A DNA stretch of 18,505 nucleotides, taken from the UHGV virus genome UHGV-0309262. One strand, given 5' to 3'. A model generated the notes under the pieces. The model was not told the DNA's origin. It was given only the letters and a program-made list of their open reading frames with translations, and did not search any database. Below are positions 56 to 18,505 of this stretch, piece after piece; within the stretch, counting starts at the first letter, position 1; every line of letters begins with the position of its first letter. The DNA is from a virus. Position numbers and translations under genes: made by a program.

Positions 56-140
56 GCCGAAGTGGCGAAATCGGTAGACGCAGTTGATTCAAAATCAACC
101 GTAGAAATACGTGCCGGTTCGAGTCCGGCCTTCGGCACCA
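56..140 (+). tRNA. leuX: tRNA-Leu (anticodon CAA), 85 nt, ending in CCA
   Basis: Sequence GCCGAAGTGGCGAAATCGGTAGACGCAGTTGATTCAAAATCAACCGTAGAAATACGTGCCGGTTCGAGTCCGGCCTTCGGCACCA has cloverleaf features: anticodon stem GTTGA/TCAAC with loop TTCAAAA (anticodon CAA), a long variable arm, T-arm GGTTCGAGTCC and encoded CCA. Recognised from memory as E. coli leuX. Confidence 0.9.
110..140. repeat. attL core: 31-bp tRNA 3' end, repeated at 14568..14598
   Basis: CGTGCCGGTTCGAGTCCGGCCTTCGGCACCA occurs identically at 110..140 and 14568..14598. Flanking sequence diverges immediately outside the repeat. Confidence 0.8.
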
Positions 141-1906: not shown

Positions 1907-2894
1907 TGGCCTACAAGCGAATAAGGTGCTATGACTGGCCGTTACTGGGCTGTGGGTGATGGATTACCTACAGCTTTCGTATTAATTTCAGAGCGTTATG
2001 TTATGCACGATGTCGTAATGCTATGATTTATAATGTATTTTCGTATTACTTGCGGCTCTCGATGTGAAGAGATGGCGGGGCTTTAGCCGTGCCAGACGAT
2101 GAACATCGAGATCAGATTGTGAATGTGATTTATCACTGAAACAATTCCCGGTTGGGGGCGGGGAAGGATTCAACGCTAATTGGTTATGTCGTGGTGCTGG
2201 GTTACATGCTGTTTCTATAGGCTTTTAATGATTTCAGCGTACACGTGTACACTTAACCAATTATCTATGGAGGTTCTTATCTGGTGTCATCTCCTAGATG
2301 GCAAGTGCTGCGCCTCAGTGACGCCGCTTTGCCCTAACGCGGAGACGTTCCGCCGTCTCCACACCTCTCGACGGTGCTGCGCTTCTCGCGTCCGCTAGTC
2401 CGCTTTCATTCGCCTTCGGCTCATTCATCGGCCTGCGTCCGCTGCTGATGCTCGGCCCTCCACGCAACCGTGCTTGCCGGGCAGTCAACGCGGCGGGGAT
2501 GTGTAGTGGAACGGTACTCTGTATCGGTATTACTTCTGTATTCCATCTTATCCTGATATCGGTACGGTATTCTTCATAACATCTTCAATTCATTTCTGTA
2601 GCATTCAATCATCTTCCTTGTTCGTTTCCTTCCAGATCTTAGCCGTTGGTCATTGGTCTTACTGCCAGCTATGGCACACCGTCACGGTCTACTGCTGTAC
2701 TATCTGTTACCTGTTACTACTGCCTTCACTGGTTTCCGGTTGTCAGTCCTACGGTCTGCCATCCGTCATCCGTTCGGCGCTCGCTTGTTTCGGCTGCGCC
2801 GCGCTCGCTCTGCGTATCTAGCGATACTATATCACTATAGACACTTTCATAATTATCTATTGATATCAGTAACTTATATTTTTAATTTTAAAGG

Positions 2895-3146
2895 CTACTA
2901 ATAAGGAGATATAGAGCATTACTTTCCCGCTTTTGACCGACAAAAAATCGAGTTGTTAAGTATTGCCAGCCCAGGCCCAGTAAGGCTTAGCGAGGTGGTG
3001 ATTAAAAATTGACCTAATAAAAGTATCTACTAAGGAGAAAGAATAACTCCCGAAGTGAGACAAACTCTCCGATTTTGAAAGTGACTATTAAGGCAGATAA
3101 AGACACTGACACTGTTGCCGACATGAAAACCTCTATAAGGGCAGAG
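2895..3146. repeat. Array of 4 degenerate direct repeats (consensus about CTAnTAAGGnAG) upstream of the helicase gene; possible iterons or operator sites
   Basis: CTACTAATAAGGAG (2895..2908), TCTACTAAGGAG (3027..3038), GACTATTAAGGCAG (3083..3096) and CTCTATAAGGGCAGAG (3131..3146). None is followed by an ORF, so they are unlikely to be ribosome-binding sites. Confidence 0.4.
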
Positions 3147-3215
3147 AGTCTGCCGCACCTGTACCACCGCCCCAACCTGAGCTAATACCTACCCCTATTT
3201 TCTGGAGATTTCACC

Positions 3216-5060
3216 ATGCCAACAAACCTACGCCGCCTGCTTGCGCAGGCTGCTGACGCCGAACCGCTGAACACTGCGATTGCCGAAGCTCAGCAATTGG
3301 TTGCGGAGAAGATCGTTATACCTCATTCCAAGTTATGCCCTGTCAAACAGCGACCTGTGAAGGCTGCGTTTAACACGGAGTCCGGGCAGTATTTCTACAA
3401 TGCAGATGGTTCCGTTATGTCGTTCCGTGAATGGAAAGAGGCGAACGGAATCGGACGCAAGACACACGCCCGCCGCGCTGATGCTGGGCTACGTCAGATT
3501 ATCCAGCCCGGCGACGCAATTCATTGTCAACGCGCTGAGATTGATCAATGGCTCAACAAGAAGCCTGCCCGGTACGCCGAACCGCTGCCGCCAGATTTTC
3601 CCGGCGTTCGCGTTGACGATGCCGCTCTGAAACCACGTGAGCACGCCATCCCGGAAGCGACCACGGGGCAAAACGCCTTTCTTAAAGCCTGTCGCGAGTT
3701 TCTGATTTGTGATGAGAAGACCATCCGCCGCATCAATCGTGGCATGAGCAAGCTGGAGGCGATGCGCCACGCTGACTTTGACACCCTCGGGGATAGCCCG
3801 GAGTTTCACCAGCTATGGGGCAGTGAGCTGAAATCCACTAAGGACAATTTCAACACGAAGAACCAACACTGTGACGTTGGCGGCGCTGACCTGCCGCCGT
3901 CCATCCCGCCTCTGGTTACAGCGCCGTACAGGTTCCGTGAGCTGGAGCAATGCGACCGCCCGGCATTCGTACCGTTACCGCCGCCAGATGGTCATGACTG
4001 GCGACCCGGTCAACTCGACGTGGCCGCCGCTGTGTTTGCCCGTGACCGCGATATGTTGGCCGTACTGCCGACCGGGTACGGAAAGACGGCTGCATTCACC
4101 TATGCCCTGCATTTTGAGTCTGATGCTGGCGAAGGTATGACCGTTATTGTCGTGCCGACGAACACTATCAAGCAGCAGGTGCTAGAGCAGTTAAGGGAGG
4201 CTGGCGTTCACGCTGTGGCATTTGGCGATAAACTACCGAAGCGGCGTAATGCGCAGCAACTTGCGGGGTTGGCTGCTGGTGCTTTCCGCGTCGCAGTCGT
4301 TTCGCCTGAACATCTGGTGCCGGGTAGTCAGGTGCTTGCCGCGCTGATGGCCGCTGGTGCGGACAGATTTATCATTGACGAGGTGCACACCGTTGATGAA
4401 TGGGAGTTCCGGGACGCTTTCCCTGCAATGAAGCACACCCTGCAAAATGCCTTCCCGGATGCTCAGCGGTGCGCGTTTACTGCGACCCTGCGAAAAGGTG
4501 ATGAGTCTGGCTTGATGAAAGAGCTTGGCTGTCGTGGCGAGTTCCTCACCTACCGCGCCAGTGCTGCCCGTGAAAACATCCAGCTTATTCCTGCTCAGCA
4601 ATGCGTAACTCCGCGCCGGGCTGCCGTTGGTCTGGTCAATGCGCTGCCGGAGAATGAAAAGACATTGGTGATGGTGGACAGCATAAAGATGCTGTATGCG
4701 TATCTCAACGAACTGGGAGACCGTGCCCGGCCTTATCATTCTGACGTTGAGCGACTGAGCCGCGATCAGCGGCACGCCAACGCAGAGTGGTTCTCCAGCA
4801 CGCCCGGCGCTGTTCTGGTGGCGACCAAAGCCTTTGGCCTCGGAGCCGATATTTCTGACGTGCGTAACGTAATTGTCACTTATGTTCCGGAAGACCTGCC
4901 CGATTTGGTGCAAATGGTTGGCCGTGCCGGGCGCGATGGTCAACCTGCCCGTGCTTTCATACTCTGGTCATCGTTGGCGCTGGGGGATGCGCCTGATGAT
5001 TTGGCGGCGTTGTACCAGCCCCACAATGCTAACTGGGGTTACATCTCCCGCTTCCTCTGA
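3216..5060 (+). CDS. RecQ-like SF2 DNA helicase with an ~270 aa N-terminal domain of unknown function (614 aa); probable replication or recombination protein of the element
   Basis: Helicase motifs read from the translation: motif I LPTGYGKT, motif II IIDEVH, motif III FTAT, and motif V/VI VATKAFGLGADISDVRNVI...QMVGRAGRDG, which closely resembles the RecQ signature QExGRAGRDG. SD GGAGA 7 nt upstream of ATG 3216. Confidence 0.8.
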   Translation: MPTNLRRLLAQAADAEPLNTAIAEAQQLVAEKIVIPHSKLCPVKQRPVKAAFNTESGQYFYNADGSVMSFREWKEANGIGRKTHARRADAGLRQIIQPGDAIHCQRAEIDQWLNKKPARYAEPLPPDFPGVRVDDAALKPREHAIPEATTGQNAFLKACREFLICDEKTIRRINRGMSKLEAMRHADFDTLGDSPEFHQLWGSELKSTKDNFNTKNQHCDVGGADLPPSIPPLVTAPYRFRELEQCDRPAFVPLPPPDGHDWRPGQLDVAAAVFARDRDMLAVLPTGYGKTAAFTYALHFESDAGEGMTVIVVPTNTIKQQVLEQLREAGVHAVAFGDKLPKRRNAQQLAGLAAGAFRVAVVSPEHLVPGSQVLAALMAAGADRFIIDEVHTVDEWEFRDAFPAMKHTLQNAFPDAQRCAFTATLRKGDESGLMKELGCRGEFLTYRASAARENIQLIPAQQCVTPRRAAVGLVNALPENEKTLVMVDSIKMLYAYLNELGDRARPYHSDVERLSRDQRHANAEWFSSTPGAVLVATKAFGLGADISDVRNVIVTYVPEDLPDLVQMVGRAGRDGQPARAFILWSSLALGDAPDDLAALYQPHNANWGYISRFL

Positions 5061-5103
5061 GCTAACTGGCTCGCCTGTTTAATTTCCTCTCTGGAGAATC
5101 CAC

Positions 5104-5535
5104 ATGCCTGATGAAACCGTGCGGCAACGCGCGGGGCGTTCTGACGCCCTGATTAATGCGCAGCTCGCTTACGCCCTGAACGGGTATTCATTTGATGGGT
5201 TGGCCGAACGTCATCGCAAGACCCTTAACCGGGAGGCCATCCTTCGCGAGGTGTCCACGCCGCTGGAGCGATATTGCCTTTTGAATGATTGCGAACCGTG
5301 GGAGTGTCTGGCCGCTGTGCTGAACCGCATGAAAAGGCCGGATGGCTCACGTTGCTGGAAAGCTGTCCGCCTGTCTGAGCGGGTTTTTAATGGTCGAGTG
5401 CATCCAGTGCGCAAGACACCTGATGAAGTTTACGCCGCCATTGCCCGCCGTTTATTTCTGCCGAAGCCCGTGCATCAAGAAGTGATACAGCACATCCGGG
5501 CGCTTGGCCTGTTACCAGTTGGAGATAACCATTAA
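5104..5535 (+). CDS. Hypothetical protein (143 aa), first gene of a coupled operon
   Basis: ORF with SD GGAGAA 6 nt upstream of the ATG. Its stop overlaps the next start (TAATG). No recognisable motif. Confidence 0.55.
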   Translation: MPDETVRQRAGRSDALINAQLAYALNGYSFDGLAERHRKTLNREAILREVSTPLERYCLLNDCEPWECLAAVLNRMKRPDGSRCWKAVRLSERVFNGRVHPVRKTPDEVYAAIARRLFLPKPVHQEVIQHIRALGLLPVGDNH

Positions 5536-5744
5536 TGACCAAAACCGAGTTTGAAGCTGGGACATGGGATATGCGGTGCCTGTTGCTGGAGGCGCTGACC
5601 CGCCGCCTGAAAGAGGACTCCGCTGGAGAATCCCGCATGGCTGCTGCCGAGCTGTCATCCTGCGTGAACTTCCTCAAGCAAAATGCCGCCGATGCGCCGG
5701 ACGCATCTTTCAATAACGTGTTCCCGGAGGATGACAACGAATGA
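5535..5744 (+). CDS. Hypothetical protein (69 aa), acidic C-terminus
   Basis: Start overlaps the preceding stop (TAATG) and the stop overlaps the next start (ATGA), indicating translational coupling. Confidence 0.45.
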   Translation: MTKTEFEAGTWDMRCLLLEALTRRLKEDSAGESRMAAAELSSCVNFLKQNAADAPDASFNNVFPEDDNE

Positions 5745-5932
5745 CGCCGCACCAGTTTAGAGCGTGGTTTAACTCGCTGCCTGAGAAGTACCAGAAGCAG
5801 GCCAAAGCCATGTACGACAACGCCCGGCGCGGCGGTGGTATCCATACCGCATCCAGCCTCGCTTTGATTAAAGACCTTGTAGAAGATTCGATTAACTTTG
5901 ATGGAGAGTTCCAGTATGACAACCACCAGTAA
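5741..5932 (+). CDS. Hypothetical protein (63 aa)
   Basis: ATGA overlap with the upstream gene; in-operon position and consistent coding composition. Confidence 0.45.
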   Translation: MTPHQFRAWFNSLPEKYQKQAKAMYDNARRGGGIHTASSLALIKDLVEDSINFDGEFQYDNHQ

Positions 5933-6494
5933 CGCAACCCTGACCCTGCGCGATATTCAGCTTATCAATAAACTGAGTATTGTTGACCACCTGAACAACG
6001 ATGAAATCTCTTCTCGCACTGGTTTCAGCCCGAGCGACATCGACCGTGTAATCCGTGGCGTCTATGTCGATGACTTGGCCGAACAGTGGAAAGACGATGC
6101 TGATATTACTCTGGCTGAATACAACGCCATCCGCAGCCGCTATAAGCCCGGCAAGCTGCACCGTGATACGGAATTTATGATTGCCCGCGATACGCTGATT
6201 CGCCCTGAAACCGTGCTGGCTATCGCTCATTCCAGATTCCAGAACGCCCACACTCACCCTGCGCCGAAAGCCGTTAAAGTGAAGCCGGAGAAAGCGAAAG
6301 CCATGCGCAAGCTGGTGCCTTCTGATTTGGATGAAATCCACAAGTTAGAGCGCTTTGGCTGGCCTGTCGCTGACATCGCCCAAAAGCTGGACGTTCCGCC
6401 AGAGGTGATCGCTTTCGTTAACCGCTGCTTAAAGAGCCGCTGGCCGTATGGTGACATTCTGGAAAATGTTAATGCGAAATGGGGAGCCGAGTGA
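5916..6494 (+). CDS. Hypothetical protein (~192 aa)
   Basis: ATG at 5916 is preceded by GGAGAG at 5902..5907. The ORF track's earlier TTG start at 5898 lacks an SD. Stop overlaps the next start (TGATG). Confidence 0.5.
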   Translation: MTTTSNATLTLRDIQLINKLSIVDHLNNDEISSRTGFSPSDIDRVIRGVYVDDLAEQWKDDADITLAEYNAIRSRYKPGKLHRDTEFMIARDTLIRPETVLAIAHSRFQNAHTHPAPKAVKVKPEKAKAMRKLVPSDLDEIHKLERFGWPVADIAQKLDVPPEVIAFVNRCLKSRWPYGDILENVNAKWGAE

Positions 6495-6724
6495 TGGAAG
6501 ATAACGACATCATTCACCCTGCAATTGACCCGACTCAATACGTCAACCTTGACGAGATGCGGGAAGGCTACGCCCCTGTTAAGCCGCAGGGGTGGGACAT
6601 CCTGACGCAGAATCTCCGAAGTGAGGCCGCACCCGAACAGCCAGTCACCGCCCGTGGACGCCGCCAGCGTCCGCGTGGCTCCGCTGGCGAGCGCCGTTGG
6701 CTACGCCGTCACGGGCTTATTTAA
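6494..6724 (+). CDS. Hypothetical protein (76 aa), Arg-rich C-terminus
   Basis: ATG 6494 overlaps the upstream stop; GGGGAG SD at 6481..6486. Confidence 0.45.
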   Translation: MEDNDIIHPAIDPTQYVNLDEMREGYAPVKPQGWDILTQNLRSEAAPEQPVTARGRRQRPRGSAGERRWLRRHGLI

Positions 6725-6738
6725 CTGAGGATTATTTC

Positions 6739-6978
6739 ATGAGCACCATCATTTTAATGGAGCCACGCCGCGCGGCTGATTGCGGGCAACAACTGAAATT
6801 CATTGCTGACGCCTTGAATCTTCGTCAAATCGACTTGGCTCGTGTGTACCAGATCGACAGACAAGATCTCGGCAAAGCGTACCACGGACAGAAGATGATT
6901 CCTGCCCGATGCGTACATGCGCACATGCTTTTACTTGAACTGGCGCACCGCCGAGTTACATCACAAGAGGTTGCATAA
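6739..6978 (+). CDS. Hypothetical small protein (79 aa)
   Basis: ATG 6739 is preceded by GAGG at 6727..6730. The track ORF starting at 6697 overlaps the previous gene and is less likely. Confidence 0.4.
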   Translation: MSTIILMEPRRAADCGQQLKFIADALNLRQIDLARVYQIDRQDLGKAYHGQKMIPARCVHAHMLLLELAHRRVTSQEVA

Positions 6979-6980
6979 TT

Positions 6981-7676
6981 ATGGCTGACAATCAAAACCC
7001 TTATCTCGCTGCTGGCGCTGATGCTGCATCGCAGCAATCGCCATACATGGCTGCACCTGTTGGAGCTGACAATGGGGCATCCCGCTTTAGCTCTGCGCCT
7101 GCTGATGCTGATTTCCTCCGTACCCAACCCGTTAACGGTAATGATGGCGGCCAATGGAATAATAGCAATATTGCTAATCAGCAAGACCAGAACGCGGACA
7201 GCGCCGGGGCGCAGGTGGGCGATACTATTCCCCTGATGGATGGAACAGCTATTGAGTACACCGCCGAGCTGCAAGGATTGATGGGGCAGTTTCACCAGTC
7301 TATAGAAAGCCAGCTCGGGCACGGAACAGTTGACGCTATGTTGCAGTACGCGGGCACGCTTGACGCCGGGACGCAATCCACCCTTGAACGTATGGTTATG
7401 TCTGGCGACCCTGCGCAGATGCAGCGGGCTGTTCAGTACCTGCAAGAGAGGATGGCCGCAGGCACTGCGACTGGTTATGTCCCGTCGCAGGGGAACACAT
7501 ATGGTCAGCCCGCCGCGCAACCTGTCGGAATGTCACACGCTGAATTCATCGCGGCGTACGATGCGCTGAATCAATGGGCTGCACAGACTGGCCGGGGTGC
7601 TGGCACGCGAGAATACGACCAGCAGTATCATGCGCTGGTTGCTCAACGCAGCGCCGGGAAGCGTGCCGGGCGCTAA
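6981..7676 (+). CDS. Hypothetical protein with a low-complexity Ala/Gln/Gly/Asn-rich N-terminal half (231 aa)
   Basis: Long ORF with no internal stops, in-operon position. The composition suggests a disordered region; no enzymatic motif recognised. Confidence 0.5.
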   Translation: MADNQNPYLAAGADAASQQSPYMAAPVGADNGASRFSSAPADADFLRTQPVNGNDGGQWNNSNIANQQDQNADSAGAQVGDTIPLMDGTAIEYTAELQGLMGQFHQSIESQLGHGTVDAMLQYAGTLDAGTQSTLERMVMSGDPAQMQRAVQYLQERMAAGTATGYVPSQGNTYGQPAAQPVGMSHAEFIAAYDALNQWAAQTGRGAGTREYDQQYHALVAQRSAGKRAGR

Positions 7677-7690
7677 CTGGAGAATTCCAT

Positions 7691-7954
7691 ATGTACGATG
7701 AGAATAGAATCCGAGTCCTGACCGAGGTAGAGAAACAATCTCACTCGGTCGATAGCATTCTTTCCATTCTGCTTGATAAATACCCCAGCACCAGCCCCGA
7801 CCATCTGACGCGTGTCGCTGAATGCCTCGTTACTTTTGGCTGGGGTGTTGCTGAATACGATGCGTACCGCGCCGGGATGCTTGGCGAAGAGAAGCGCCAG
7901 ACGATGGTCGCTTGGTTTACTGAGCGGAATTCCGCGCAACGCTGGGCTGCCTGA
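7691..7954 (+). CDS. Hypothetical protein (87 aa)
   Basis: ATG 7691 with GGAG SD 8 nt upstream, just after the upstream stop at 7674..7676. The ORF track's 7574 start lies inside the preceding gene. Confidence 0.45.
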   Translation: MYDENRIRVLTEVEKQSHSVDSILSILLDKYPSTSPDHLTRVAECLVTFGWGVAEYDAYRAGMLGEEKRQTMVAWFTERNSAQRWAA

Positions 7955-8224
7955 TTCCGATGCCAGCGCCTGACGGTGCATTGTGGGCTGCAAGTCCGAC
8001 TGGACACCTGACCCTGCGAATTAACTACTTACTGTCCACTAATCGCTGAGAGCCGCGCCAATTCTGGCCTAGCAAAGCCAGTTTCGGGTACTCGGAGACT
8101 TTTCTATCAATCTGCTTTAACCCTGATTTTCCATCTCTCTGAATCCTGCCACGGCGGGAGGATTACGCACGCCTGCACCATGACGATGGCGCGGGCTTCA
8201 TCAACCTACGTAGGAGTTTTGTTT

Positions 8225-9220
8225 ATGGCTGATACTTCGTACAGTCCCGATCTGTTTCGCCCACATTATGGCGGGGTGGAATCCGACAATGATATTCACA
8301 TCGAGGCTTATGACCGGGATGTCCAGACCCGTTTAGAGTCCAAATCCGTATTTCTGGCCGAGGGGCTGTCTACATACAGGCCGCTGAAAGGCAGCAACCA
8401 ATACCGCATTGATCGCCTGAGTGGTGATCTTGAGGTGAAGGGCAGAACCGCAGGGCAATCGCTGGAGCCTACCGCCGTTAAGTCGGACAAGCTGATCATC
8501 TCTGTGGATACTCTGAGCTATATCCGCATCCCGATTGATTATCAAGATGACTGGACTGCACCCACCTTTCGCGCCGAGCTGAGCCGCAACATGGGGACAG
8601 CCCATGCGAAGTTTTACGACGAAGCGCACACCATCCAGTTAATCAAAGCGACTGACTTTGTACCGCCGCCGACACTGCAACCAACGTTTAACCCGCTTAC
8701 GGGCAATGTTGTCTCGCTCGACCTGACAGCGGGGAGCGAAGAGGACGCCGCAAAAGAGCTGGTTCACGCTATCAAAGCTGCTGTTGATCGGTTCCTGACT
8801 GAGAAAGATATTCCGGTGGTGGAGTTGTGTCTTCTCATCGACCCGGCTTGGTTCAGCATCCTGATGGAACACAAGAAGCTGATGAACGTCCGTTATAGCC
8901 GGGATAGTGGCAACGATTACGCGTGGCGGCGCATCGGTTACGTGGCCGGGGTGCGAGTCATTGAGCTGAACAGTTACCCGCAGGAAGCCATTACCGGGCA
9001 TGAGCTGGGCGCTGATTATGACGTTACCGCAGAGGAAGCGCTGACGAGGGCGACGCTGTTTAAACCCTCCTCGGTACTGTTGACGGTCGAAGCACAGAGC
9101 GTCATCAATCGCCAGTGGGATGATGAACGCGAAATGACGGTGGTGATGGACTCATATCGCCTGTTCAACGTTGGGCTGCGTCGTCCTGATTGCGTTATCA
9201 ATTTCCGACAATCTGCGTAA
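8225..9220 (+). CDS. Hypothetical protein (331 aa); possibly structural, but this is a weak guess
   Basis: ATG 8225 preceded by AGGAG at 8210..8214, following a 270-bp intergenic gap. Size and position after a low-complexity protein loosely resemble a scaffold/capsid arrangement, but no motif confirms it. Confidence 0.5.
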   Translation: MADTSYSPDLFRPHYGGVESDNDIHIEAYDRDVQTRLESKSVFLAEGLSTYRPLKGSNQYRIDRLSGDLEVKGRTAGQSLEPTAVKSDKLIISVDTLSYIRIPIDYQDDWTAPTFRAELSRNMGTAHAKFYDEAHTIQLIKATDFVPPPTLQPTFNPLTGNVVSLDLTAGSEEDAAKELVHAIKAAVDRFLTEKDIPVVELCLLIDPAWFSILMEHKKLMNVRYSRDSGNDYAWRRIGYVAGVRVIELNSYPQEAITGHELGADYDVTAEEALTRATLFKPSSVLLTVEAQSVINRQWDDEREMTVVMDSYRLFNVGLRRPDCVINFRQSA

Positions 9221-9236
9221 CTGGAGGGGCTGGGTC

Positions 9237-9746
9237 ATGGTTAATGATACTTACGCCCCTGAGCTGTTGCGATCCCTTTTCCTGTACGACCCGGTGACAG
9301 GTCGCCTGCACCATAAAGCTAACCGACGCCGGGTTAAGGCTGGCTCCTGTGCTGACTCCACCCGTCGAGCTGATGGCTATCGTCAAGTTGCCCTGCGACT
9401 GGATGGCAAGCAGTACCAGCTAAAAGCCCACCGCGTGGCGTGGATTCTTGCGCATGGCGCTATTCCTGATGGTCTGCAAGTTGACCACATCAACGGTATC
9501 CGTGACGACAACCGCCTATGCAATCTGCGCTTGGTTACGCAGCGGGAAAACGACCAGAACCGACGCAGGGCAAAGGGTTGTAGCTGGAATAAGGGCTGTA
9601 GCAAATGGGAGGCTTACATTCGCGTTAATGGTGTACGCCATCACCTTGGCTTATTCACTAGCGAAGCGGCGGCGCGTGCTGCTTACCTGAAAGCAAAAGC
9701 CAGATACCATCCCTCGACCCCAGTCGATTTGTTAAATGCTGCTTAA
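9237..9746 (+). CDS. HNH endonuclease with AP2-like DNA-binding domain (169 aa)
   Basis: AHRVAWILAHGAIPDGLQVDHINGIRDDNRLCNLRLVTQRENDQNR matches the phage-type HNH_3 signature (H...DH.NG...DNR..NL......N). WEAYIRVNGVRHHLGLFTSEAAARAAY matches an AP2 domain. SD GGAGGGG 6 nt upstream. Confidence 0.7.
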   Translation: MVNDTYAPELLRSLFLYDPVTGRLHHKANRRRVKAGSCADSTRRADGYRQVALRLDGKQYQLKAHRVAWILAHGAIPDGLQVDHINGIRDDNRLCNLRLVTQRENDQNRRRAKGCSWNKGCSKWEAYIRVNGVRHHLGLFTSEAAARAAYLKAKARYHPSTPVDLLNAA

Positions 9747-9764
9747 ACTTTGGAGACGTAGTTT

Positions 9765-10199
9765 ATGGGGACTAAAAAGCAGGGTAGAGCAATCCGAGTG
9801 CTGCCAGATGATGACCCACGTCGCCAGCGGTACGCCGAACTGTTGGCGCAGGCTGGCCGGATGACTGTCCCCCGGTTGCATCCGGGAGACGCTAACAGCG
9901 TAATGAGCCAGCTCGCGACGATGCTTGGCGCACCAGTCCCGATAGTCGGCACTATGACGGAGCACGCCGCCGCATGGCGGACCTGCCTGCTGGAGCAAGG
10001 ACTTGGCGATCTGCTGGCTGGCTTGAGTAAGCAGGTACTGACCGTCTTCTTTCTGCTTTGCTGGAGAGACAGCGCCTTGCGGCAGGTTGGCAAGGAGCGG
10101 GAACGGCTTACGGCGGCCAGCGAAGGCTTGACCATTGAACAGTATCGGGCAATGCGCTCGGCTTACAGAGAGAATAAAGAAGATGATGACCACGATTAA
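9765..10199 (+). CDS. Hypothetical protein (144 aa)
   Basis: ORF with GGAGACG SD upstream of ATG 9765; in-operon position. Confidence 0.45.
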   Translation: MGTKKQGRAIRVLPDDDPRRQRYAELLAQAGRMTVPRLHPGDANSVMSQLATMLGAPVPIVGTMTEHAAAWRTCLLEQGLGDLLAGLSKQVLTVFFLLCWRDSALRQVGKERERLTAASEGLTIEQYRAMRSAYRENKEDDDHD

Positions 10200-10482
10200 A
10201 TTAAGGTGGCGGTACATCGATCCGCCGCCAATGGCTGGCGCACTCGCTGACCTGAAAGTGTGGGTAATGGATACCGGAGAGCCTGAGCTGGAAGCTGAAT
10301 TTCGTAAGCTGCTGGGGTTAATGCGCCGCAACGGTATCAGTGACGAACGCGTTAATGCGATGGCTGATGAGCTTTATGTTCTGGTACGGCAACGGCAGCG
10401 CGAAGAATACGAAGCCTGCAAGCGGGCTGCATCTGACAATGGAGACTTTGAATCATGGTTACACGGACAGACCAGCTACTAA
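10183..10482 (+). CDS. Hypothetical protein (~99 aa)
   Basis: ATG 10183 overlaps the end of the upstream gene. The 5' part of the track ORF (from 10135) overlaps that gene and is rejected. Confidence 0.4.
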   Translation: MMTTIKLRWRYIDPPPMAGALADLKVWVMDTGEPELEAEFRKLLGLMRRNGISDERVNAMADELYVLVRQRQREEYEACKRAASDNGDFESWLHGQTSY

Positions 10483-10883
10483 GAAAAGCTATGCGGGGCT
10501 ATCTGGAACACCTCGGCAACATGCCGTTGGCGGAACGGATTACAAACACTGCTGCATTCGAAGATGTGTATCGCTTCCTGTTGAATGGTTCCGGGCGTCT
10601 GGAGCTGCGTCGTGCTGATGTGGCCGCTGTCCGTTTCTTCTTGTGGAATTATCAATACCGCCGCTGTGCGGTGACAGGTAAGCCGCTGCGCCTTACGTCT
10701 GCCGTATTAGATCACTGCCACCGAACCGGGCGCGTGCGTGCTGTGGTGCATCGCTCTGCTAACGCTGCTGAGGGTGGCTACCATGCTGGGCGTTTGTGTG
10801 GGCTGTCGCCTAGCAGCATGAACGCGATGCTGGCGAGCTACCGCCAACAAAACCAAGGGCTGGGCGTTGTTTATCCGGGGTGA
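10455..10883 (+). CDS. Endonuclease VII-like (Holliday-junction/branched-DNA nuclease family) protein (142 aa)
   Basis: C-terminal CAVTGKPL...LDHCHRTGRVRAVVHRSANAAEG matches the Endonuclease_7 pattern (C..C...DH.H.TG.VR.....N...G). GGAGA SD upstream of ATG 10455. Confidence 0.6.
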   Translation: MVTRTDQLLRKAMRGYLEHLGNMPLAERITNTAAFEDVYRFLLNGSGRLELRRADVAAVRFFLWNYQYRRCAVTGKPLRLTSAVLDHCHRTGRVRAVVHRSANAAEGGYHAGRLCGLSPSSMNAMLASYRQQNQGLGVVYPG

Positions 10884-10895
10884 TGAGTTCTCGCT

Positions 10896-10917
10896 GCGCC
10901 GGGTTTGCACCCGGCAC
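10896..10917. terminator. Putative bidirectional hairpin between convergent transcription units
   Basis: GCCGGGT-TTGC-ACCCGGC stem-loop in the 55-bp gap between the plus-strand operon (ends 10883) and the minus-strand R gene (ends 10939). Weak U-tract. Confidence 0.3.
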
Positions 10918-10938
10918 AAAAGATGTTTAGCCCACTAG

Positions 10939-12015
10939 TCAGTGGGTTACGCAGTTTTCCATAAACGCATTAAGGAATTGATCTGTAATTCCTTGTGGTT
11001 TGCGTCGTTCACAAAGAGAATACAATTCTTCGACTGCTGAGTACGGGAAGAATTTTGTGTCCAGCTCTCGGAATTGCGGCATATTCGCAAACTCAATGAC
11101 TTTAGCACGATATTCATCGGGGGCTACGATTGTCCATCTGATATCTTGAAGCCGTGGGGCATAGTCACAAAAATTCTTCATCCGGGTTAACCCGCTTTTA
11201 ATCCCAGTGCTGTGCTCAATTTCCATCACGGCGGGCATTAATTTTCCATTTCTAAACCAAATGCAATCTATTAGTTTTGCACCGTCAATGGCCTCGCTGT
11301 ACGAGCTTAATACCTTTTCATTTGAGAGGCTATCAATTACCCCATCCATTTGAGCAATGACTTTTCCGTTATATTTAAGTCCGCGATCATTAGCTGCCAC
11401 CCATGTTCTGTAGCCTAAGTGGTGGCCGATTTTTACTAATGCAATCTGGATTTGTGCATGTCTTCTTGATTCTTCAATCGACATGCCCTCAACTGGGCGG
11501 ATCGTTTCCAGATCAACGCTTTGATATACAACCTCTGTTTTCATCTCTGATATTACAATATTAGCTTTGTATTCAGAGAGCTTACCGTTTTCGTGTGGCG
11601 AATTGGGTAAGTACACAAGATGCTTGTGGCCTTTCTTTACCGTCTGTTTAGTGTTAATAACTTCTAAACGGTCGAGTTTACACCAATAAAATTGCGGTGT
11701 GTGTGCAAGTAAACTCTCAATAACGGAACGGGAGTTATAGCTTGCACCAAGCACTCTATCTAAATTGATAGGTGCATCCTCTTGAATTGCATTAGCCAAA
11801 CGCCAAAGCATCTGGCTAGAGATGCTGTCTATTTTTGCATCTTTAAGCGTCTCGCCTTTGGTCGGATTAAAACGCTTAAAGCGTATCGGGCCTTGTGGTG
11901 ACTTAATCGAGTCGACGACAATCTTCCCAGCATTACTTTCATTCACATAATCAAACTGCCTGTTTTTGGGCAGGTTGGCTATCGCATTCACAAGATTCAT
12001 TGCTGTCAAATTCAT
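10939..12015 (-). CDS. Putative type II restriction endonuclease (358 aa), cognate to the adjacent methyltransferase
   Basis: Immediately downstream of, and overlapping by 65 nt, a C5-cytosine methyltransferase gene on the same strand. Similar low GC. AGGGA SD upstream of ATG 12015. The function is inferred from position only; no catalytic motif recognised. Confidence 0.5.
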   Translation of the reverse strand: MNLTAMNLVNAIANLPKNRQFDYVNESNAGKIVVDSIKSPQGPIRFKRFNPTKGETLKDAKIDSISSQMLWRLANAIQEDAPINLDRVLGASYNSRSVIESLLAHTPQFYWCKLDRLEVINTKQTVKKGHKHLVYLPNSPHENGKLSEYKANIVISEMKTEVVYQSVDLETIRPVEGMSIEESRRHAQIQIALVKIGHHLGYRTWVAANDRGLKYNGKVIAQMDGVIDSLSNEKVLSSYSEAIDGAKLIDCIWFRNGKLMPAVMEIEHSTGIKSGLTRMKNFCDYAPRLQDIRWTIVAPDEYRAKVIEFANMPQFRELDTKFFPYSAVEELYSLCERRKPQGITDQFLNAFMENCVTH

Positions 12016-13090
12016 CTTTTATCCCTAAATGCTCTAATATAGATTTTGCTATTCCGAAGGCTGCAAGGTAAGGAACACCATTACCAACAGTTTTGAACAT
12101 ATTTGAAAGAGTCATATAAGATGGCAATTCAAACTCTTTCGGCAAAGACTGAATGGCAAGCGCTTCTGCAACTGTTATTCTGCGTGGCTTATATGGATGT
12201 AAATGAACCTCGTTATTACCATAAGCAGCAGTCGGCGAATATCTCCAGCGGTGGAGGCGCTTGTAAGATTTTTTACTATCGTCACCTTCTGCAACAGCCT
12301 TGAAGCGTACTAATCCAGCTCTGGCCGTAAATACATGCTTCGCGTTCACATGTTCAGAAACATTATTTTTCTTAAACCAGTAATCAACAGTTAATTCTTG
12401 TGGGAGTGACTCTGGCATTGCAAGTGTAGAGTCCTCGGAAAATTCATTTGTTGTTGGCCAACTGTAACTAAAGGCATTACGATCCGGGTATAATCTGCCA
12501 CTCCAATTAAATGACTTGGCTAGTCTCTTACTTTGGAAACCCAATAGAATAATGCGCTCTCGGTCTTGCGGAGCACCGTATTCAATCGAATTAATCAACC
12601 TTTCATGAAGAGTGTAACCCACATCCATCAACTGCTCTTTGAGATGCTCAAAAAACTCGCGATGCTTGAGTGTGCGATATAACCCCTTGACGTTCTCGAA
12701 CAAGAAGAAGTCAGGTTTCATCTCTACAATTATATCAATGTAGCTTTGGGACAGCTTACCATTCTCCCCATCGCGCCCTTTGTTTTTGCCCGCAACGGAG
12801 AAGTCGGGGCAAGGTGGGCCACCAATGAAGCCAATCAGTCTTTTTTCTTTCTTGAGTGTTTTAATAGCGTCTTTCAACTGCTTGTGATCAACTTCCTCTA
12901 TGCTCTTTTCGGCATAGCCAAAACGAGGGATAGGCTTGTTCATTACCGCACGCGAGTGCTTGTAAGCATCCATAAACGGCGGGTGAAATTCATTCACAAA
13001 AACCACTTCGTAGCCTGAGTTTTCAAAGCCAAGGTCTAAAAAGCCTGAGCCGGAAAAGAAAGAGAAGATGGCGGGTTTAAGTGTGGACAT
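11951..13090 (-). CDS. DNA (cytosine-5)-methyltransferase (379 aa)
   Basis: C5-MTase motifs in the expected order: motif I FSGSGF (F-x-G-x-G), motif IV GGPPCP (the catalytic Pro-Cys), motif VI ENV (FLFENVKGL), motif VIII QDRER, motif X GNGVP near the C-terminus. Confidence 0.8.
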   Translation of the reverse strand: MSTLKPAIFSFFSGSGFLDLGFENSGYEVVFVNEFHPPFMDAYKHSRAVMNKPIPRFGYAEKSIEEVDHKQLKDAIKTLKKEKRLIGFIGGPPCPDFSVAGKNKGRDGENGKLSQSYIDIIVEMKPDFFLFENVKGLYRTLKHREFFEHLKEQLMDVGYTLHERLINSIEYGAPQDRERIILLGFQSKRLAKSFNWSGRLYPDRNAFSYSWPTTNEFSEDSTLAMPESLPQELTVDYWFKKNNVSEHVNAKHVFTARAGLVRFKAVAEGDDSKKSYKRLHRWRYSPTAAYGNNEVHLHPYKPRRITVAEALAIQSLPKEFELPSYMTLSNMFKTVGNGVPYLAAFGIAKSILEHLGIKDEFDSNESCECDSQPAQKQAV

Positions 13091-13225
13091 TTTTTACCTA
13101 TTGCTGATCATTAAGACATGCGAAAACGCCCCTGCATCTTAACAGATGAGGGGGTCATTGCAACGGATTGCGGGGAGCTGTAGCGATGAGCTGGCTCAGA
13201 TGAACGATTCAAACATCCATTAAAT

Positions 13226-14434
13226 TTAAAGGGCTATTTGATGGTTCACAAACTCCACGTAGCGTGATAGTTCGGCTGGGGCTGCTGCGTTTTTCGAATA
13301 TGTTTTGAAGCTCTCCGTGTTACCTCGCTCATGGCCGACGAGCAGGGCAATGCGATCCTCTGGCACTTGAGCACGGTCGAGCTGTTGCACAAACGCATGG
13401 CGGAGTGAATGAAACACTTTTCTCTCTGCGGCAGGCTCGCCAAGAGCTTTACGCTTTGCTCGCGTGAATTGTTGCGTATGCCACGTTGAGCGCTTCCCAT
13501 CGGCCCGGTCTGTAATAGATGCGTGATAGAACAGAAAACCGCTATGTGTGGTTTTGAGCAATGATTTCATGAGGGGGATTAACTTGCTGTGTACAGGGAC
13601 AATTCGCGCTGCGCTCTTAGTTTTCCCCTCGGTGATCTCAAAGCACAATATCCCCTCGATAGTTTTAATGCTGCTTTCACGTAGCGTACATATCTCATTG
13701 ATCCGCATACCGCTGTATGCACCAATAGCCGTTACCGCCTTCATCTCATCATCAAGCAAAGCATAGACCTTTGCCAGCTCACCCGGTGCGAAGACTTCAT
13801 AGCTGACCTTGCTGCTTTTTGCTTCGAGCGCATGACCGCGCCAAGGATTGTCTTGTGGCGCATCGTGATAGCGATTGCGTGCCAGATCCCATATCTGCGC
13901 CAGTGCGCTTATATAGTTTTGAATAGTTTGGGGCGCTCGCTCAGTTTTGAGCTTATCTAACCAGCCTGTAACTATGGTTCGGTTAATATCCCGCAACTGA
14001 ACATCTTTCTTTTTCAGGTGGGTTAACAGCACCTCTACGGCTTTGTTGGTCTTAGATAGCGTTGTTAGCTTTCTCTTCTCGCTGTATTGGAGAAGATACA
14101 GATCGCGCATTTTAAGTAGGGAGGGGCAAGCCTGAACCGATGCACCAAATGATGCGGGGGCTTCCTTGGCATATACACTGACACGGCGTAGCTCATCAAT
14201 GATTTGATCGACGGATGAGCCGCCTTGCGGTTTTAGCAGATTCCGTAAGCGAGTCCATTCCAGAGCAATAGCATCGCGAAACAAACGCGCTTGCCGTATG
14301 TCGCGTGTCCCTGTGCTTTTCATAAAGTAGCGCTTCCCTTGGAACAGGTGACGCATATAGCTGGGGATAGCTATCCGCACGAGGTAATTACCGCAGGGAT
14401 CTAAAACTAGATAACGATCTCTCTTGAAACTCAT
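13226..14434 (-). CDS. Tyrosine recombinase / phage-type integrase of the inserted element (402 aa)
   Basis: C-terminal catalytic signature: R in YSGMRINEI, HSLRHAF (H-x-x-R box), LLVGH, and the nucleophile Y in TESFKTYSKN. Lies next to the right direct repeat. Confidence 0.8.
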   Translation of the reverse strand: MSFKRDRYLVLDPCGNYLVRIAIPSYMRHLFQGKRYFMKSTGTRDIRQARLFRDAIALEWTRLRNLLKPQGGSSVDQIIDELRRVSVYAKEAPASFGASVQACPSLLKMRDLYLLQYSEKRKLTTLSKTNKAVEVLLTHLKKKDVQLRDINRTIVTGWLDKLKTERAPQTIQNYISALAQIWDLARNRYHDAPQDNPWRGHALEAKSSKVSYEVFAPGELAKVYALLDDEMKAVTAIGAYSGMRINEICTLRESSIKTIEGILCFEITEGKTKSAARIVPVHSKLIPLMKSLLKTTHSGFLFYHASITDRADGKRSTWHTQQFTRAKRKALGEPAAERKVFHSLRHAFVQQLDRAQVPEDRIALLVGHERGNTESFKTYSKNAAAPAELSRYVEFVNHQIAL

Positions 14435-14567
14435 ACAAACCCCGGTTATGTTGTCGGGGCTTTTTCATGGCTAAACAGTCTGTGAAATGTGCCGGGGTTA
14501 TGAGCTTTAGTCTCGCTGGTTCAATGATTTAACAATGATTCTTGAAGCAAGCTAAGCCGCCTAAACC

Positions 14568-14598
14568 CGTGCCGGTTCGAGTCCGGCCTTCGGCACCA
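14568..14598. repeat. attR core: displaced original 3' end of leuX
   Basis: Identical 31-bp copy of tRNA positions 110..140, located ~165 bp upstream of the P4-like integrase where an intact leuX would normally sit. Confidence 0.8.
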
Positions 14599-14710: not shown

Positions 14711-14764
14711 TTGGGGGCATAATTGGGGGCATCTTAACTTCGATTAGAAATGTGCCCCCAAATG
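14711..14764. promoter_or_regulatory. Direct and inverted repeats of a TTGGGGGC motif upstream of and overlapping the intB start; putative integrase operator or arm-type site
   Basis: TTGGGGGCAT (14711..14720) and TTGGGGGCAT (14723..14732) are direct repeats. Their reverse complement GCCCCCAA sits at 14753..14760, overlapping the start codon. Confidence 0.3.
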
Positions 14765-16027
14765 AAGCTCAACGCCAGACAGGTCGAGACCGCAAAGCCA
14801 AAAGACAAAACCTATAAAATGGCCGATGGCGGCGGTTTGTATCTCGAGGTTTCGGCCAAGGGTTCTAAATACTGGCGCATGAAATACAGACGCCCCTCAG
14901 ACAAAAAAGAGGATCGCCTCGCTTTTGGTGTTTGGCCTACTGTGACGCTTGCTCAGGCAAGAGCAAAGCGCGACGAAGCTAAAAAGCTGTTAGTGCAGGG
15001 CATTGACCCAAAAGCCGAACTGAAAGAAGCTCAGGCCGAGAATTCGGGGGCATATACTTTCGAAACCATTGGCCGTGAATGGCATGCCAGTAACAAGCGC
15101 TGGAGTGAAGACCATCGATCACGCGTTCTTCGCTATCTTGAGCTTTATATCTTCCCTCATATCGGTTCGTCCGACATTCGCCAGCTCAAAACTAGCCACC
15201 TGTTAGCCCCGATTAAAAAAGTTGATGCCAGTGGAAAGCATGACGTCGCTCAGCGCTTGCAACAGCGCGTTACGGCCATTATGCGTTATGCCGTACAGAA
15301 CGATTACATCGACTCAAATCCAGCCAGTGATATGGCCGGTGCGCTATCGACAACCAAAGCGCGGCACTATCCTGCTTTGCCCTCTAGCCGCTTCCCAGAG
15401 TTTCTTGCTCGTCTTGCTGCATATCGTGGCCGTGTAATGACACGGATCGCGGTCGAGCTTTCCTTACTCACTTTTGTACGTTCCAGTGAGTTACGTTTCG
15501 CGCGTTGGGATGAATTCGACTTCGATAAATCTCTTTGGCGTATACCGGCAAAACGAGAAGAAATTAAAGGCGTGCGTTACTCGTATCGTGGCATGAAAAT
15601 GAAAGAGGAGCATATTGTTCCTCTCAGTCGGCAGGCGATGGTTTTATTAGAGCAGCTCAAGCAAATTAGTGGTGATAAAGAGCTGCTGTTCCCGGGAGAT
15701 CATGACGCAACTAAGGTTATGAGTGAAAACACGGTAAACAGTGCATTGCGTGCAATGGGATATGACACGAAAACTGAGGTCTGTGGGCATGGGTTCAGAA
15801 CGATGGCGCGTGGTGCTATGGGTGAGTCAGGGTTGTGGAGTGATGACGCGATAGAGCGACAGCTGAGCCATTCAGAACGTAATAACGTGCGTGCAGCTTA
15901 TATTCATACTTCTGAGCATTTGGATGAGCGACGTTTAATGATTCAGTGGTGGGCTGATTATCTTGATGAGTTAAATAATAATTACATTACTCCATTTGAT
16001 TTCGCTAAAATACAAAAAAATTATTAA
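14762..16027 (+). CDS. intB: P4-family tyrosine integrase (421 aa)
   Basis: N-terminus MKLNARQVETAKPKDKTYKMADGGGLYLEV is the hallmark P4-like integrase arm-binding signature (AKPK..Y...DGGGLYL). Typical position just downstream of the leuX 3' end. The in-frame ATG at 14750 is an alternative start. Confidence 0.85.
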   Translation: MKLNARQVETAKPKDKTYKMADGGGLYLEVSAKGSKYWRMKYRRPSDKKEDRLAFGVWPTVTLAQARAKRDEAKKLLVQGIDPKAELKEAQAENSGAYTFETIGREWHASNKRWSEDHRSRVLRYLELYIFPHIGSSDIRQLKTSHLLAPIKKVDASGKHDVAQRLQQRVTAIMRYAVQNDYIDSNPASDMAGALSTTKARHYPALPSSRFPEFLARLAAYRGRVMTRIAVELSLLTFVRSSELRFARWDEFDFDKSLWRIPAKREEIKGVRYSYRGMKMKEEHIVPLSRQAMVLLEQLKQISGDKELLFPGDHDATKVMSENTVNSALRAMGYDTKTEVCGHGFRTMARGAMGESGLWSDDAIERQLSHSERNNVRAAYIHTSEHLDERRLMIQWWADYLDELNNNYITPFDFAKIQKNY

Positions 16028-16038
16028 TATTTACATGG

Positions 16039-16062
16039 AAGGGCTGAAAGAACAGCCCTTCT
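16039..16062. terminator. Bidirectional rho-independent-type terminator between intB and the convergent AT-rich locus
   Basis: Perfect 9-bp stem GAAGGGCTG / CAGCCCTTC with loop AAAGAA, flanked by T-rich sequence on both strands. Confidence 0.5.
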
Positions 16063-16070
16063 AATATATT

Positions 16071-16327
16071 TAATTATTTTTCAGTAATCCTTTATCTTCT
16101 AATTCTGTATAGATAGCTAGCGGTAATTTTAAGGAATCATAATCATTATTCCTTAACCATTCCTTCGCCGCACTTACCGAAGGGTTTGAGTTTGGAATGA
16201 TATTCTCTAGATACGATGCTGTAATTCTAGATAACCCTAGTTCGATGAATACTTGCCCTGCGATAGATGAAACCCCTAGTTCAAGTGATAATGGAAAATC
16301 ATAGATTTCTTCAGATTTTTTTCTTGG
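16071..16327 (-). other. Start-less 84-codon open frame overlapping the helicase 3' end; possible frameshifted C-terminal extension or gene remnant
   Basis: My translation of the minus strand gives ...KSEEIYDFPLSLELGVSSIAGQVFIELGLSRITASYLENIIPNSNPSVSAAKEWLRNNDYDSLKLPLAIYTELEDKGLLKNN* with no ATG, GTG or TTG. It is in the -1 frame relative to the helicase and begins at an A7 tract (plus-strand T7 at 16306..16312). Confidence 0.3.
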
Positions 16328-18345
16328 TTATTTTCAATTAAAGCTTGGCGCAATAAGTCAATATATGCCTTGCCAAGTTGCACATATTTGAATCGCAAGT
16401 TATCTTCCACGAAATCAAAAACCTCTCTTACAGCTCTGTCCACATTTACAGGCCTAGTGGAGTTTTTTTCTTTTTTCTTATTTATGGAGAGAGAGATTAT
16501 CTCCGGCAGAGATTTACCCCTCATCCAATTCAAAGCCATTGAAGTTAGATAGTTAGAAAATTTAGATGTATTATGGTTAAGGATGTATTTATTTATTCTG
16601 CTAAAAACACCAACGTAATTTTTGTAAACATCACCTGAAGGATGGCGAGGTATAAGTTCGTCAACTTTACCTTCCTTTATTTTCTGGATAAATCTATTGT
16701 ACAATCGTTCCTGTCCAAATGGATCAACTGTCCAGTTCAGAGTTAAAACCTCATGAGGTATTTTAAGTGATTCTAATGAGATATAAGTGGCATTTTCAAT
16801 AGTTTCAAGTTTTGATTTGTCAGATATAGTTCGAAATAATCTTTTAAGAAAATTATGCAAATCTCCTTTTGCGGCTCTGGAGATTAAAAGGCCTGCCGCT
16901 GCATCAATATTACTATATGGCGTCACTCCTGAATGATTATTTTTGTCTAATCGTGATATTACTGTGTCAAAATCTTCATTAATTACTTTCTTAAAAGATG
17001 AAGTAATTTTGAAGTCTATTTTGGAATCTAAAGGCTTGGTTACCCAATCATCATAGTCAATAAGATAAACATTTCCCGAAAATGCATAACCTAATCTACC
17101 TGCCCGCCCTGCGAAATTCCATAGCGATGCTGGATCTAATTTTTCTCCCCTGTTTCCTCGTGTAGGTGTATCAATAAAAACATTCTTTGCAGGCAGATTA
17201 ACCCCTTGAAAAAGGGTTGTTGTGCAAACTAAAAACTTCAGTTTATTATTCGTGAAATTTTTTTCTAATGTTTCTCTTAATAAGCTTGGCATTTTACCAT
17301 AATGGTATCCAACCCCTCTCAATACGAGGTTTGCAAGAGAGTAATCCTTGTGGACATGTTTTTTTATAAATTTTGAGAGCTCTTGTAATTCACTGTCATC
17401 CTCTAAAAGAGGTAATCCAGAAGATATTTGCTTAGCTACATCTTCTGCATTGGCAGCTCCGGTTCCGTAAACTAAAGACCCCTCATTTTTTCCTAATTCT
17501 AATGCGACAGCCGCCAATCTTGTATTTTCATTGGCGAAACCCCTTGTCGATTCTATTTCTCCGATCGGTAATATGTTTGAATTGTCTAATAATGATAATT
17601 GTAAGTTGTTTTCTTTTGATGGATCAACTTTGACGATAATTTTGTTTTGAACTACAGGAGATAGATTTGTTTTTTCAATATGGATTGCATCGATTCCAAT
17701 AATATCTGCTAAATCATCAAAACCTTCAGCACCAGGCGCGAGGAAAACATATTTTGCATTAGGGTTTTGTGTGCTAATTTTATCAAGGCAGTCCTGTAAT
17801 ATCATCCCCCTAATTTCGTCAGAAATTGATTGTGCTTCGTCAATAACTACCAAGTCTATTTTTTCTTCAAAATTATCAAGCAATACTTGAAGTCTTTCCT
17901 GTGTTAAAACAAATATCTGCTTATTATATTCGTTATTAATTGTTGGTATGGATGTTACTCTGACTTCATTTTGATATGGTAAAGTCTTGATTATAAATTT
18001 TTGTGTTATTTCATTTACTAAAGCACGGGTTGGTGCTATATAAATGGCGGAATTTAATTCGCCGCTAATTATTCTGTTGGCGAGCATTTCCACAACTAAG
18101 AACGATTTTCCGGCTGATGTTGGAGCTGATATAGCTTGAGGGACATTCGAGTGCAATGACTCCCATACTCTTTTCTGAAAGTTTGTTAATGTTATTTCTT
18201 TGTTGGAGATCTTTATTTTATTTTCATTTTCTATGAAAGATCTTTTTAAGAAGGCATAAAAACTTTCTGGTATAAATCCATTTTCTTGTTGAAGATAAGT
18301 TGCTCCAGGGAAGTTGCCCAAAACTCTTAAAAGATTTTCTGACAT
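16276..18345 (-). CDS. Ski2/Hel308-like superfamily 2 DExx-box helicase (~689 aa) in very AT-rich DNA; candidate anti-phage defence gene
   Basis: Motif I APTSAGKS, motif II VVIDEAQ, motif VI FAGRAGRLG, and a Ski2/Hel308-like block GVGYHYGKMPSLLRETLEKNF...LKFLVCTTTLFQGVNLPAKNV. Start taken as ATG 18345 (MSENLL...). The ORF track's TTG start at 18381 lies inside the IS1 inverted repeat and is rejected. Confidence 0.7.
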   Translation of the reverse strand: MSENLLRVLGNFPGATYLQQENGFIPESFYAFLKRSFIENENKIKISNKEITLTNFQKRVWESLHSNVPQAISAPTSAGKSFLVVEMLANRIISGELNSAIYIAPTRALVNEITQKFIIKTLPYQNEVRVTSIPTINNEYNKQIFVLTQERLQVLLDNFEEKIDLVVIDEAQSISDEIRGMILQDCLDKISTQNPNAKYVFLAPGAEGFDDLADIIGIDAIHIEKTNLSPVVQNKIIVKVDPSKENNLQLSLLDNSNILPIGEIESTRGFANENTRLAAVALELGKNEGSLVYGTGAANAEDVAKQISSGLPLLEDDSELQELSKFIKKHVHKDYSLANLVLRGVGYHYGKMPSLLRETLEKNFTNNKLKFLVCTTTLFQGVNLPAKNVFIDTPTRGNRGEKLDPASLWNFAGRAGRLGYAFSGNVYLIDYDDWVTKPLDSKIDFKITSSFKKVINEDFDTVISRLDKNNHSGVTPYSNIDAAAGLLISRAAKGDLHNFLKRLFRTISDKSKLETIENATYISLESLKIPHEVLTLNWTVDPFGQERLYNRFIQKIKEGKVDELIPRHPSGDVYKNYVGVFSRINKYILNHNTSKFSNYLTSMALNWMRGKSLPEIISLSINKKKEKNSTRPVNVDRAVREVFDFVEDNLRFKYVQLGKAYIDLLRQALIENNQEKNLKKSMIFHYHLN

Positions 18346-18367
18346 TTGTTTCAAATAATCATCACCG

Positions 18368-18505
18368 GGTGATGCTGCCAACTTACTGATTTAGTGTATG
18401 ATGGTGTTTTTGAGGTGCTCCAGTGGCTTCTGTTTCTATCAGCTGTCCCTCCTGTTCAGCTACTGACGGGGTGGTGCGTAACGGCAAAAGCACCGCCGGA
18501 CATCA
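18368..18505 (+). mobile_element. IS1 insertion sequence, left end (IRL plus 5' region), truncated by the window edge
   Basis: GGTGATGCTGCCAACTTACTGATTTAGTGTATGATGGTGTTTTTGAGGTGCTCCAGTGGCTTCTGTTTCTATCAGCTGTCCC... matches the IS1 left terminus and insA leader as recalled from memory. Composition jumps abruptly from ~30% GC to ~50% GC at 18367/18368. Confidence 0.8.
18423..18505 (+). CDS. insA: IS1 InsA, N-terminal fragment (continues beyond the window)
   Basis: GTG start followed by a translation [27 protein letters not shown], the zinc-finger-containing N-terminus of InsA. Confidence 0.7.

Follow-up and report, generated by a model that had tools for sequence, protein, structure and literature searches.

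Hachiman type I is a two-gene defence system composed of HamA, a DUF1837 nuclease, and HamB, a Ski2-like helicase. In its representative from E. coli ECOR31, defence is lost on deletion of either component, and an N-terminal helical bundle specific to HamB is the site contacted by HamA (PMC12278908). In P4-like satellites, psu and int flank the defence hotspot (Rousset et al. 2022, PMC9122126). Classical inactivation by IS1 involves a 768-bp element that generates target duplications of 8–9 bp and has a preference for AT-rich DNA (PMC5009759, PMC12428005). IS1 is also named, in the passage of a review that cites Prentki et al. 1986 (PMC9330008), among the elements that form fusion promoters.

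The window analysed here (the whole 18,505-nt stretch of virus genome UHGV-0309262) was found to carry a truncated helicase gene that abuts the left end of an IS1 element. Overall, this is best explained, with a probability of about 0.9, by IS1 lying inside hamB of a Hachiman operon carried by a P4-like satellite, the gene being a doubly inactivated pseudogene. According to the proposed mechanism, IS1 would have transposed into the hamB coding sequence at nt 261 (codon 87). The gene encodes the sensor helicase of the two-gene Hachiman operon hamA-hamB, which occupies the integrase-proximal defence hotspot in a P4-like satellite integrated at tRNA-Leu. The window holds the promoter-distal hamB remnant, with the codon of Met95 as the first usable ATG, and a separate 1-bp deletion in a run of eight adenines (A8) further breaks the gene by a frameshift after residue 770. 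There is nothing unusual in such an event: a defence gene already described, on a mobile element of a known type, has been disrupted by IS1, and the phenomenon is already known. The locus should accordingly be scored as a Hachiman pseudogene; annotation as an orphan helicase, as an IS-activated gene or as a new single-gene defence system would be wrong. Together with the several independent lesions found in related strains, it is a further example of how defence cargo of P4-like satellites decays via IS1 and homopolymer slippage.

The hamB remnant and the native operon

The remnant occupies positions 16276–18367 on the minus strand and extends from nt 261 of the 2559 nt of native hamB to a premature stop. 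Read from the internal ATG at 18345 (Met95), it encodes native residues 95–770 followed by a 13-aa frameshift tail, 689 aa in total. This open reading frame matched the PADLOC HamB model PDLC00187 with 1034.5 bits and includes the Pfam domains DEAD (2.2e-15) and Helicase_C (8.5e-09). As residue 2 of the open reading frame aligned to position 91 of the 851 positions of the profile, the match gave the first sign that approximately 90 N-terminal residues were missing.

Among 5,426 complete E. coli genomes, 130 matched the sequence of window positions 16000–18367, strain 1368KP most closely (99.9%). In this genome (locus L001), an 852-aa DEAD/DEAH helicase is encoded at 8071–10629 and a 346-aa HamA (annotated 'HamA C-terminal domain') at 10610–11650, such that hamA overlaps the start of hamB by 20 nt. 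The two genes are flanked on one side by a tyrosine integrase gene beside tRNA-Leu, and on the other by ogr/delta, two psu genes and a primase-helicase gene. Five more loci (L021–L025), retrieved by searching for HamA of identical sequence, share the order psu-psu-delta-hamA(346)-hamB(852)-int. All six IS-free loci are 99.75–99.92% identical to window 16000–18367 and colinear with it up to 18367, where the window turns to IS1, and in each of them hamB starts 260 nt beyond the junction and directs the synthesis of an 852-aa product. The HamB match and the DEAD and Helicase_C domains liken the remnant to Hachiman type I systems such as ECOR31 HamAB (PMC12278908), and its intact relatives have the canonical hamA-hamB operon, whereas the window copy is without hamA on the contig, has lost residues 1–94 and ends in a frameshifted C-terminus.

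Alignment to L001 placed the breakpoint at hamB nt 261, the third base of codon 87, with one base remaining ambiguous. The initial annotation had placed IS1 ahead of the helicase gene, at a distance of approximately 22 bp from its start codon. However, the ATG at 18345 is that of the internal Met95, and IS1 is inside the coding sequence. A position for IS1 in the leader of an intact helicase gene that truly starts at 18345 draws on the single fact that this is the first ATG after the junction. It is refuted by the six near-identical loci, in which the frame extends for another 94 codons to give 852 aa, and by the HamB profile match from position 91, and is practically impossible. Two other possibilities raised at the outset, namely that IS1 had cut off the 5' end of the helicase gene or had parted it from an upstream partner gene and promoter, were both borne out and describe one event. 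Indeed, the homologues in IS-free loci do not start at the same ATG, which favours decapitation, and the partner gene, hamA, overlaps the hamB start in those loci.

The window lacks both hamA and the promoter of the operon; of hamB, it is missing the ribosome-binding site and the first 86 codons, including the start codon. HamB is thus not full-length, as residues 1–94 of 852 are absent and residues 771–852 are lost to the frameshift. Searches with Pfam and PADLOC profiles found no hamA in the window, either adjacent to the remnant or elsewhere on the contig; in the source genome hamA may lie beyond IS1.

In native HamB the Pfam DEAD domain starts near residue 148 (after applying the 94-residue offset), and the lost residues 1–94 therefore make up most of the N-terminal region that precedes the helicase. 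Judging from position alone, the missing residues would belong to the HamA-binding helical bundle. Placement of the lost N-terminus on a solved structure by sequence was attempted and abandoned, as the N-terminal 145 aa of this HamB had no PDB sequence match and the full-length protein matched helicase cores only. The best PDB sequence match to full-length HamB (L001 8071–10629) was to 9wh1_B, a chain of 853 aa whose deposited name is 'DNA polymerase theta (helicase domain only)', and was confined to the helicase core (E 2.4e-36). This subtype of HamB is thus distant from solved structures, and also from the characterised ECOR31 HamB, which was not among the PDB matches at E <= 1e-10.

The IS1 end and the origin of the junction

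The left end of IS1 occupies 18368–18505 on the plus strand and stops at the contig end. It includes the left inverted repeat (IRL, GGTGATGCTGCCAACTTACTGAT, 18368–18390), which is an exact match to the characteristic 23-bp terminal repeat, a promoter-like site reading inward that was detected by promoter scan (18375–18402), and the GTG start codon of insA (18423, plus strand), placed from locus L003, where the annotated insA begins at IS1 nt 56. The segment 18368–18505 is identical at 138 of 138 positions to the complete 768-bp IS1 of E. coli strain 744 (L006), and at 137 of 138 to the IS1 copies in loci L003 and L004, from which one base differs. The identification of the terminal ~138 bp as IS1 consequently stands, and the left repeat begins at 18368, 22 nt from the ATG at 18345, as originally described.

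The exact 689-aa product mapped to contig k141_59542 (18,506 nt) of ENA assembly ERZ27268480, with the gene 161 nt from the contig end, and the window is the whole of this MEGAHIT (k=141) metagenome contig. It ends 138 nt into IS1 because the contig broke at a multi-copy repeat, as expected at k=141. The stop point inside IS1 is without biological meaning, and a contig that ends in an IS element says nothing of the sequence beyond.

The locus resembles classical IS1 inactivation in the identical left end, the AT-rich target, the position within a coding sequence and the polar effect on the 3' part of the gene. It differs in that the contig includes no more than 138 nt of the element, the right end and the duplication being outside it, and in that the native target 7-mer is the reverse complement of the IS1 tip. 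The presumptive 9-bp target site, TCATCACCG, lies at 18359–18367 and corresponds to hamB nt 261–269, with the breakpoint taken from the alignment to the uninterrupted locus L001; under simple insertion this site would recur on the far side of IS1. The junction base G18368 is ambiguous, as it fits IS1 and the uninterrupted locus alike. A perfect palindrome, CATCACC-C-GGTGATG, spans the junction at positions 18360–18374; it arises because the seven terminal nucleotides of IS1 were already present, as their reverse complement, in the native hamB target. The palindrome may be due to chance or may hint at a target choice guided by end homology. It was also considered as a terminator or structural element and rejected, since its predicted fold (−7.6 kcal/mol, z = 0.78 vs shuffles) is not that of an unusually stable RNA.

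Neither junction of the element was recovered elsewhere at the DNA level. The hamB-IS1 junction was absent from the 5,426 complete E. coli genomes, and the exact junction DNA of both sides was absent from the viral, JGI metagenome and GTDB-representative collections, outside which the ENA source sample falls. A junction query (window 18250–18505) matched 9,316 E. coli records, nearly all of them via the IS1 part alone, and two apparent full-length junction matches in complete genomes proved to be two-piece artefacts with IS1 in hamA. For the reciprocal junction, fusion proteins were predicted in which HamB residues 1–89/90 read into the IS1 right end, allowing for duplications of 8, 9 or 10 bp and two IS1 variants; an exact-sequence look-up found none of them in a collection of 15 billion proteins. 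A search with HamB residues 1–89 returned 7 clusters, and no IS1-derived tail was seen among the listed members.

These results bear on whether the junction was made by insertion or by an IS1-mediated adjacent deletion or inversion, through intramolecular transposition or IS1-IS1 recombination. In the latter case the 5' end of hamB would be gone or moved, as would hamA and perhaps also the remainder of the satellite, and there would be no target duplication here. Such an origin is possible, though the lesser candidate: IS1 is known to cause deletions after which the element lacks direct repeats (review PMC9330008), the reciprocal junction was not found in the collections searched, and in a lineage of the W5-6 type the same satellite is replaced by IS debris beside hamA. 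However, the searches were hardly able to reveal the reciprocal junction, given that the source sample is outside the DNA collections and the protein look-ups were exact or confined to listed members, and the three other IS1 copies known in this operon are all simple insertions with 9-bp duplications. On balance simple insertion is probably the event that occurred, in which case hamA and the 5' end of hamB would be intact beyond IS1.

The window being a MEGAHIT metagenome contig, the junction could also be conceived as a misassembly at the 7-nt GGTGATG/CATCACC similarity, the native target containing the reverse complement of the IS1 tip, and the frameshift downstream as a homopolymer error. 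A 7-nt overlap is unable to join k=141 paths, and the exact 689-aa product is present on three ENA contigs. In addition, gene calling in a separate Logan assembly independently yielded a 701-aa form that spans the junction, with its start at a TTG inside IS1 and the same premature stop at its end. Both lesions thus recur in independent assemblies and a sequencing error is unlikely; misassembly of the junction is accordingly very improbable.

The frameshift and expression of the remnant

The second lesion, which was missing from the initial annotation, lies in a T7 homopolymer at 16316–16322 (A7 in the coding strand) that is T8 in the six intact loci, the alignment showing one gap in every case. 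As a result of this 1-bp deletion (A8 to A7), the hamB frame shifts after residue 770 and acquires 13 aberrant residues up to a stop at 16276, as opposed to the native stop at 16070. The 3' part of hamB persists out of frame at 16070–16315 on the minus strand, covering native codons 772–852 and the stop, and when translated it gives the same sequence as the C-terminus of HamB from L001. As the last 81 native codons are still uninterrupted in their own frame, the frameshift is recent. It is a lesion independent of IS1.

On the other side of the gene, the helicase frame on the minus strand is open to the junction, as was first reported, and continues across it as far as the TTG at 18381 within IS1. 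The 22 nt between IS1 and the ATG at 18345, CGGTGATGATTATTTGAAACAA, contain no GGAG, GAGG or AGGA core, in agreement with the earlier statement that no Shine-Dalgarno sequence is present there. As in IS1 fusion promoters, a −35-like hexamer near the tip of the element faces outward: read in this direction, the tip has TTGGCA (5/6 matches to the −35 hexamer) 8 nt from its end. The best hybrid promoter that could be composed by hand is TTGGCA-N15-GATTAT, with 9/12 matches and an off-optimal spacer, while the −10 partners in the flank at 16- and 18-nt spacing are only 3/6 hexamers. A standard scan with a 16–18-nt spacer detected no minus-strand promoter. Unlike the described fusion promoters, the one conceivable here has no properly spaced −10 and no Shine-Dalgarno sequence, and the gene downstream is truncated and frameshifted.

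The third possibility put forward initially was that IS1 supplies an outward promoter and has rewired the locus; an N-truncated HamB, translated from Met95, would then act as a free helicase with a new or residual function. The hybrid promoter described above and the listing of IS1 among fusion-promoter elements (PMC9330008) speak for it, as does the solubility of HamB alone (PMC12278908). Against this stand the empty minus-strand scan, the missing Shine-Dalgarno sequence before the ATG, the loss from the product of 94 conserved N-terminal residues and of the last 82 native residues (771–852), and the absence of the effector gene hamA from the contig. Rewiring is therefore highly unlikely, and of what was first proposed the decapitation and the separation from the partner gene are retained.

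Returning to the reading of the locus as a doubly inactivated pseudogene, neither HamA nor HamB is dispensable for Hachiman, and the N-terminal bundle of HamB is where HamA docks; we conclude from this that the system is inactive and the remnant a pseudogene. With no promoter, start codon, Shine-Dalgarno sequence or hamA on the contig, and with the frameshift in addition, the remnant is presumably not expressed.

The satellite, its neighbour and decay of the locus in other E. coli

The satellite bearing hamAB is recognised in the window by a P4-type tyrosine integrase next to a tRNA att site. The integrase gene (14750–16027, plus strand) encodes the Pfam domains Arm-DNA-bind_3, Phage_int_M and Phage_integrase, and the same gene lies beside tRNA-Leu in L001. 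The left boundary of the P4-like satellite is a 31-bp copy of the tRNA-Leu 3' end (att repeat, 14568–14598, plus strand), an exact repeat of positions 110–140 within the tRNA-Leu(CAA) gene (56–140). The genes psu, delta/ogr and the alpha primase-helicase gene are present in loci L001, L013 and L021–L025, which are 99.7–99.9% identical to the satellite part of the window; in the satellite of the window they would be situated past IS1. In keeping with the P4 satellite hotspot, the IS-free relatives carry hamAB exactly between ogr/delta-psu and the integrase at tRNA-Leu, whereas the window shows only the integrase and the hamB remnant and has an unrelated second island of 14.4 kb between the tRNA gene and the satellite.

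Other copies of the same locus have decayed as well. IS1 is inserted at hamB nt ~1853 in strain 744 (L006 6777–7544), with the 9-bp duplication GTGATTCTA, and at hamA nt ~743 in P50 and 23CRST051 (L003 12657–13422 and L004 12657–13424, respectively), with the 9-bp duplication CATTAGAGT. All three of these copies are simple insertions with 9-bp duplications and have the same orientation as the IS1 of the window. In approximately 119 of the 130 complete genomes with the allele, those of the W5-6 type (L002 8071–11648), another homopolymer, at the window equivalent of 16463–16469, has lost 1 bp, and hamB is split as a result. HamA of this type has 300 aa vs 346 aa, and debris of IS1, IS3, IS30, IS911 and IS100 is found in place of the rest of the satellite. 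Given this proportion of decayed alleles, decay of this Hachiman locus is common in E. coli. The G+C content across hamB is 0.33–0.36 vs ~0.49 in neighbouring genes, and an AT-rich hamB (33–36% G+C) fits the preference of IS1 for AT-rich targets.

A broader interpretation is that the loss is recurrent and non-random, with IS1 capturing its target by end homology and with selection to shed an autoimmunity-prone P4-satellite Hachiman, as opposed to neutral decay. It draws on the three independent IS1 sites, the two independent homopolymer frameshifts, the shortened hamA and the target 7-mer that is the reverse complement of the IS1 tip, and we regard it as unlikely.

Dozens of draft assemblies contain short contigs (~1.3–2.9 kb; L007–L020 are draft or Logan sequences) that carry hamA and end within hamB at nt 150–250; these were seen through exact-length look-ups. 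The N-terminal HamB fragments listed in two of the clusters have 50–83 aa. A shared IS1 junction behind the short contigs was considered and rejected, as the contig ends are native hamB sequence without IS1 and reflect ordinary assembly fragmentation, perhaps due to low coverage of AT-rich DNA.

Two elements are arranged in tandem at tRNA-Leu(CAA) (window 56–14598), the 31-bp repeat (110–140 and 14568–14598) bounding the ~14.4-kb island that lies ahead of the satellite. Genes of this island encode a serine recombinase, a DEAD-box helicase, a capsid-like protein, HNH and EndoVII-like nucleases, a type II restriction-modification pair (REase, 10939–12015, and C5-methylase, 11951–13090) and the island's own integrase (13226–14434). 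The 614-aa DEAD-box helicase (3216–5060, plus strand) matched the PADLOC 'DpdF' model with 1045 bits, over the full length of that model, and no other dpd (7-deazaguanine modification) genes were found near it; it may be the replication helicase of the island rather than a defence component. The same island sits alone in leuX of E. coli 22AR0118 (L026), and in other strains genes annotated as encoding TIR-domain, AbiTii-domain or DUF3800-domain proteins occur within matches to the island.
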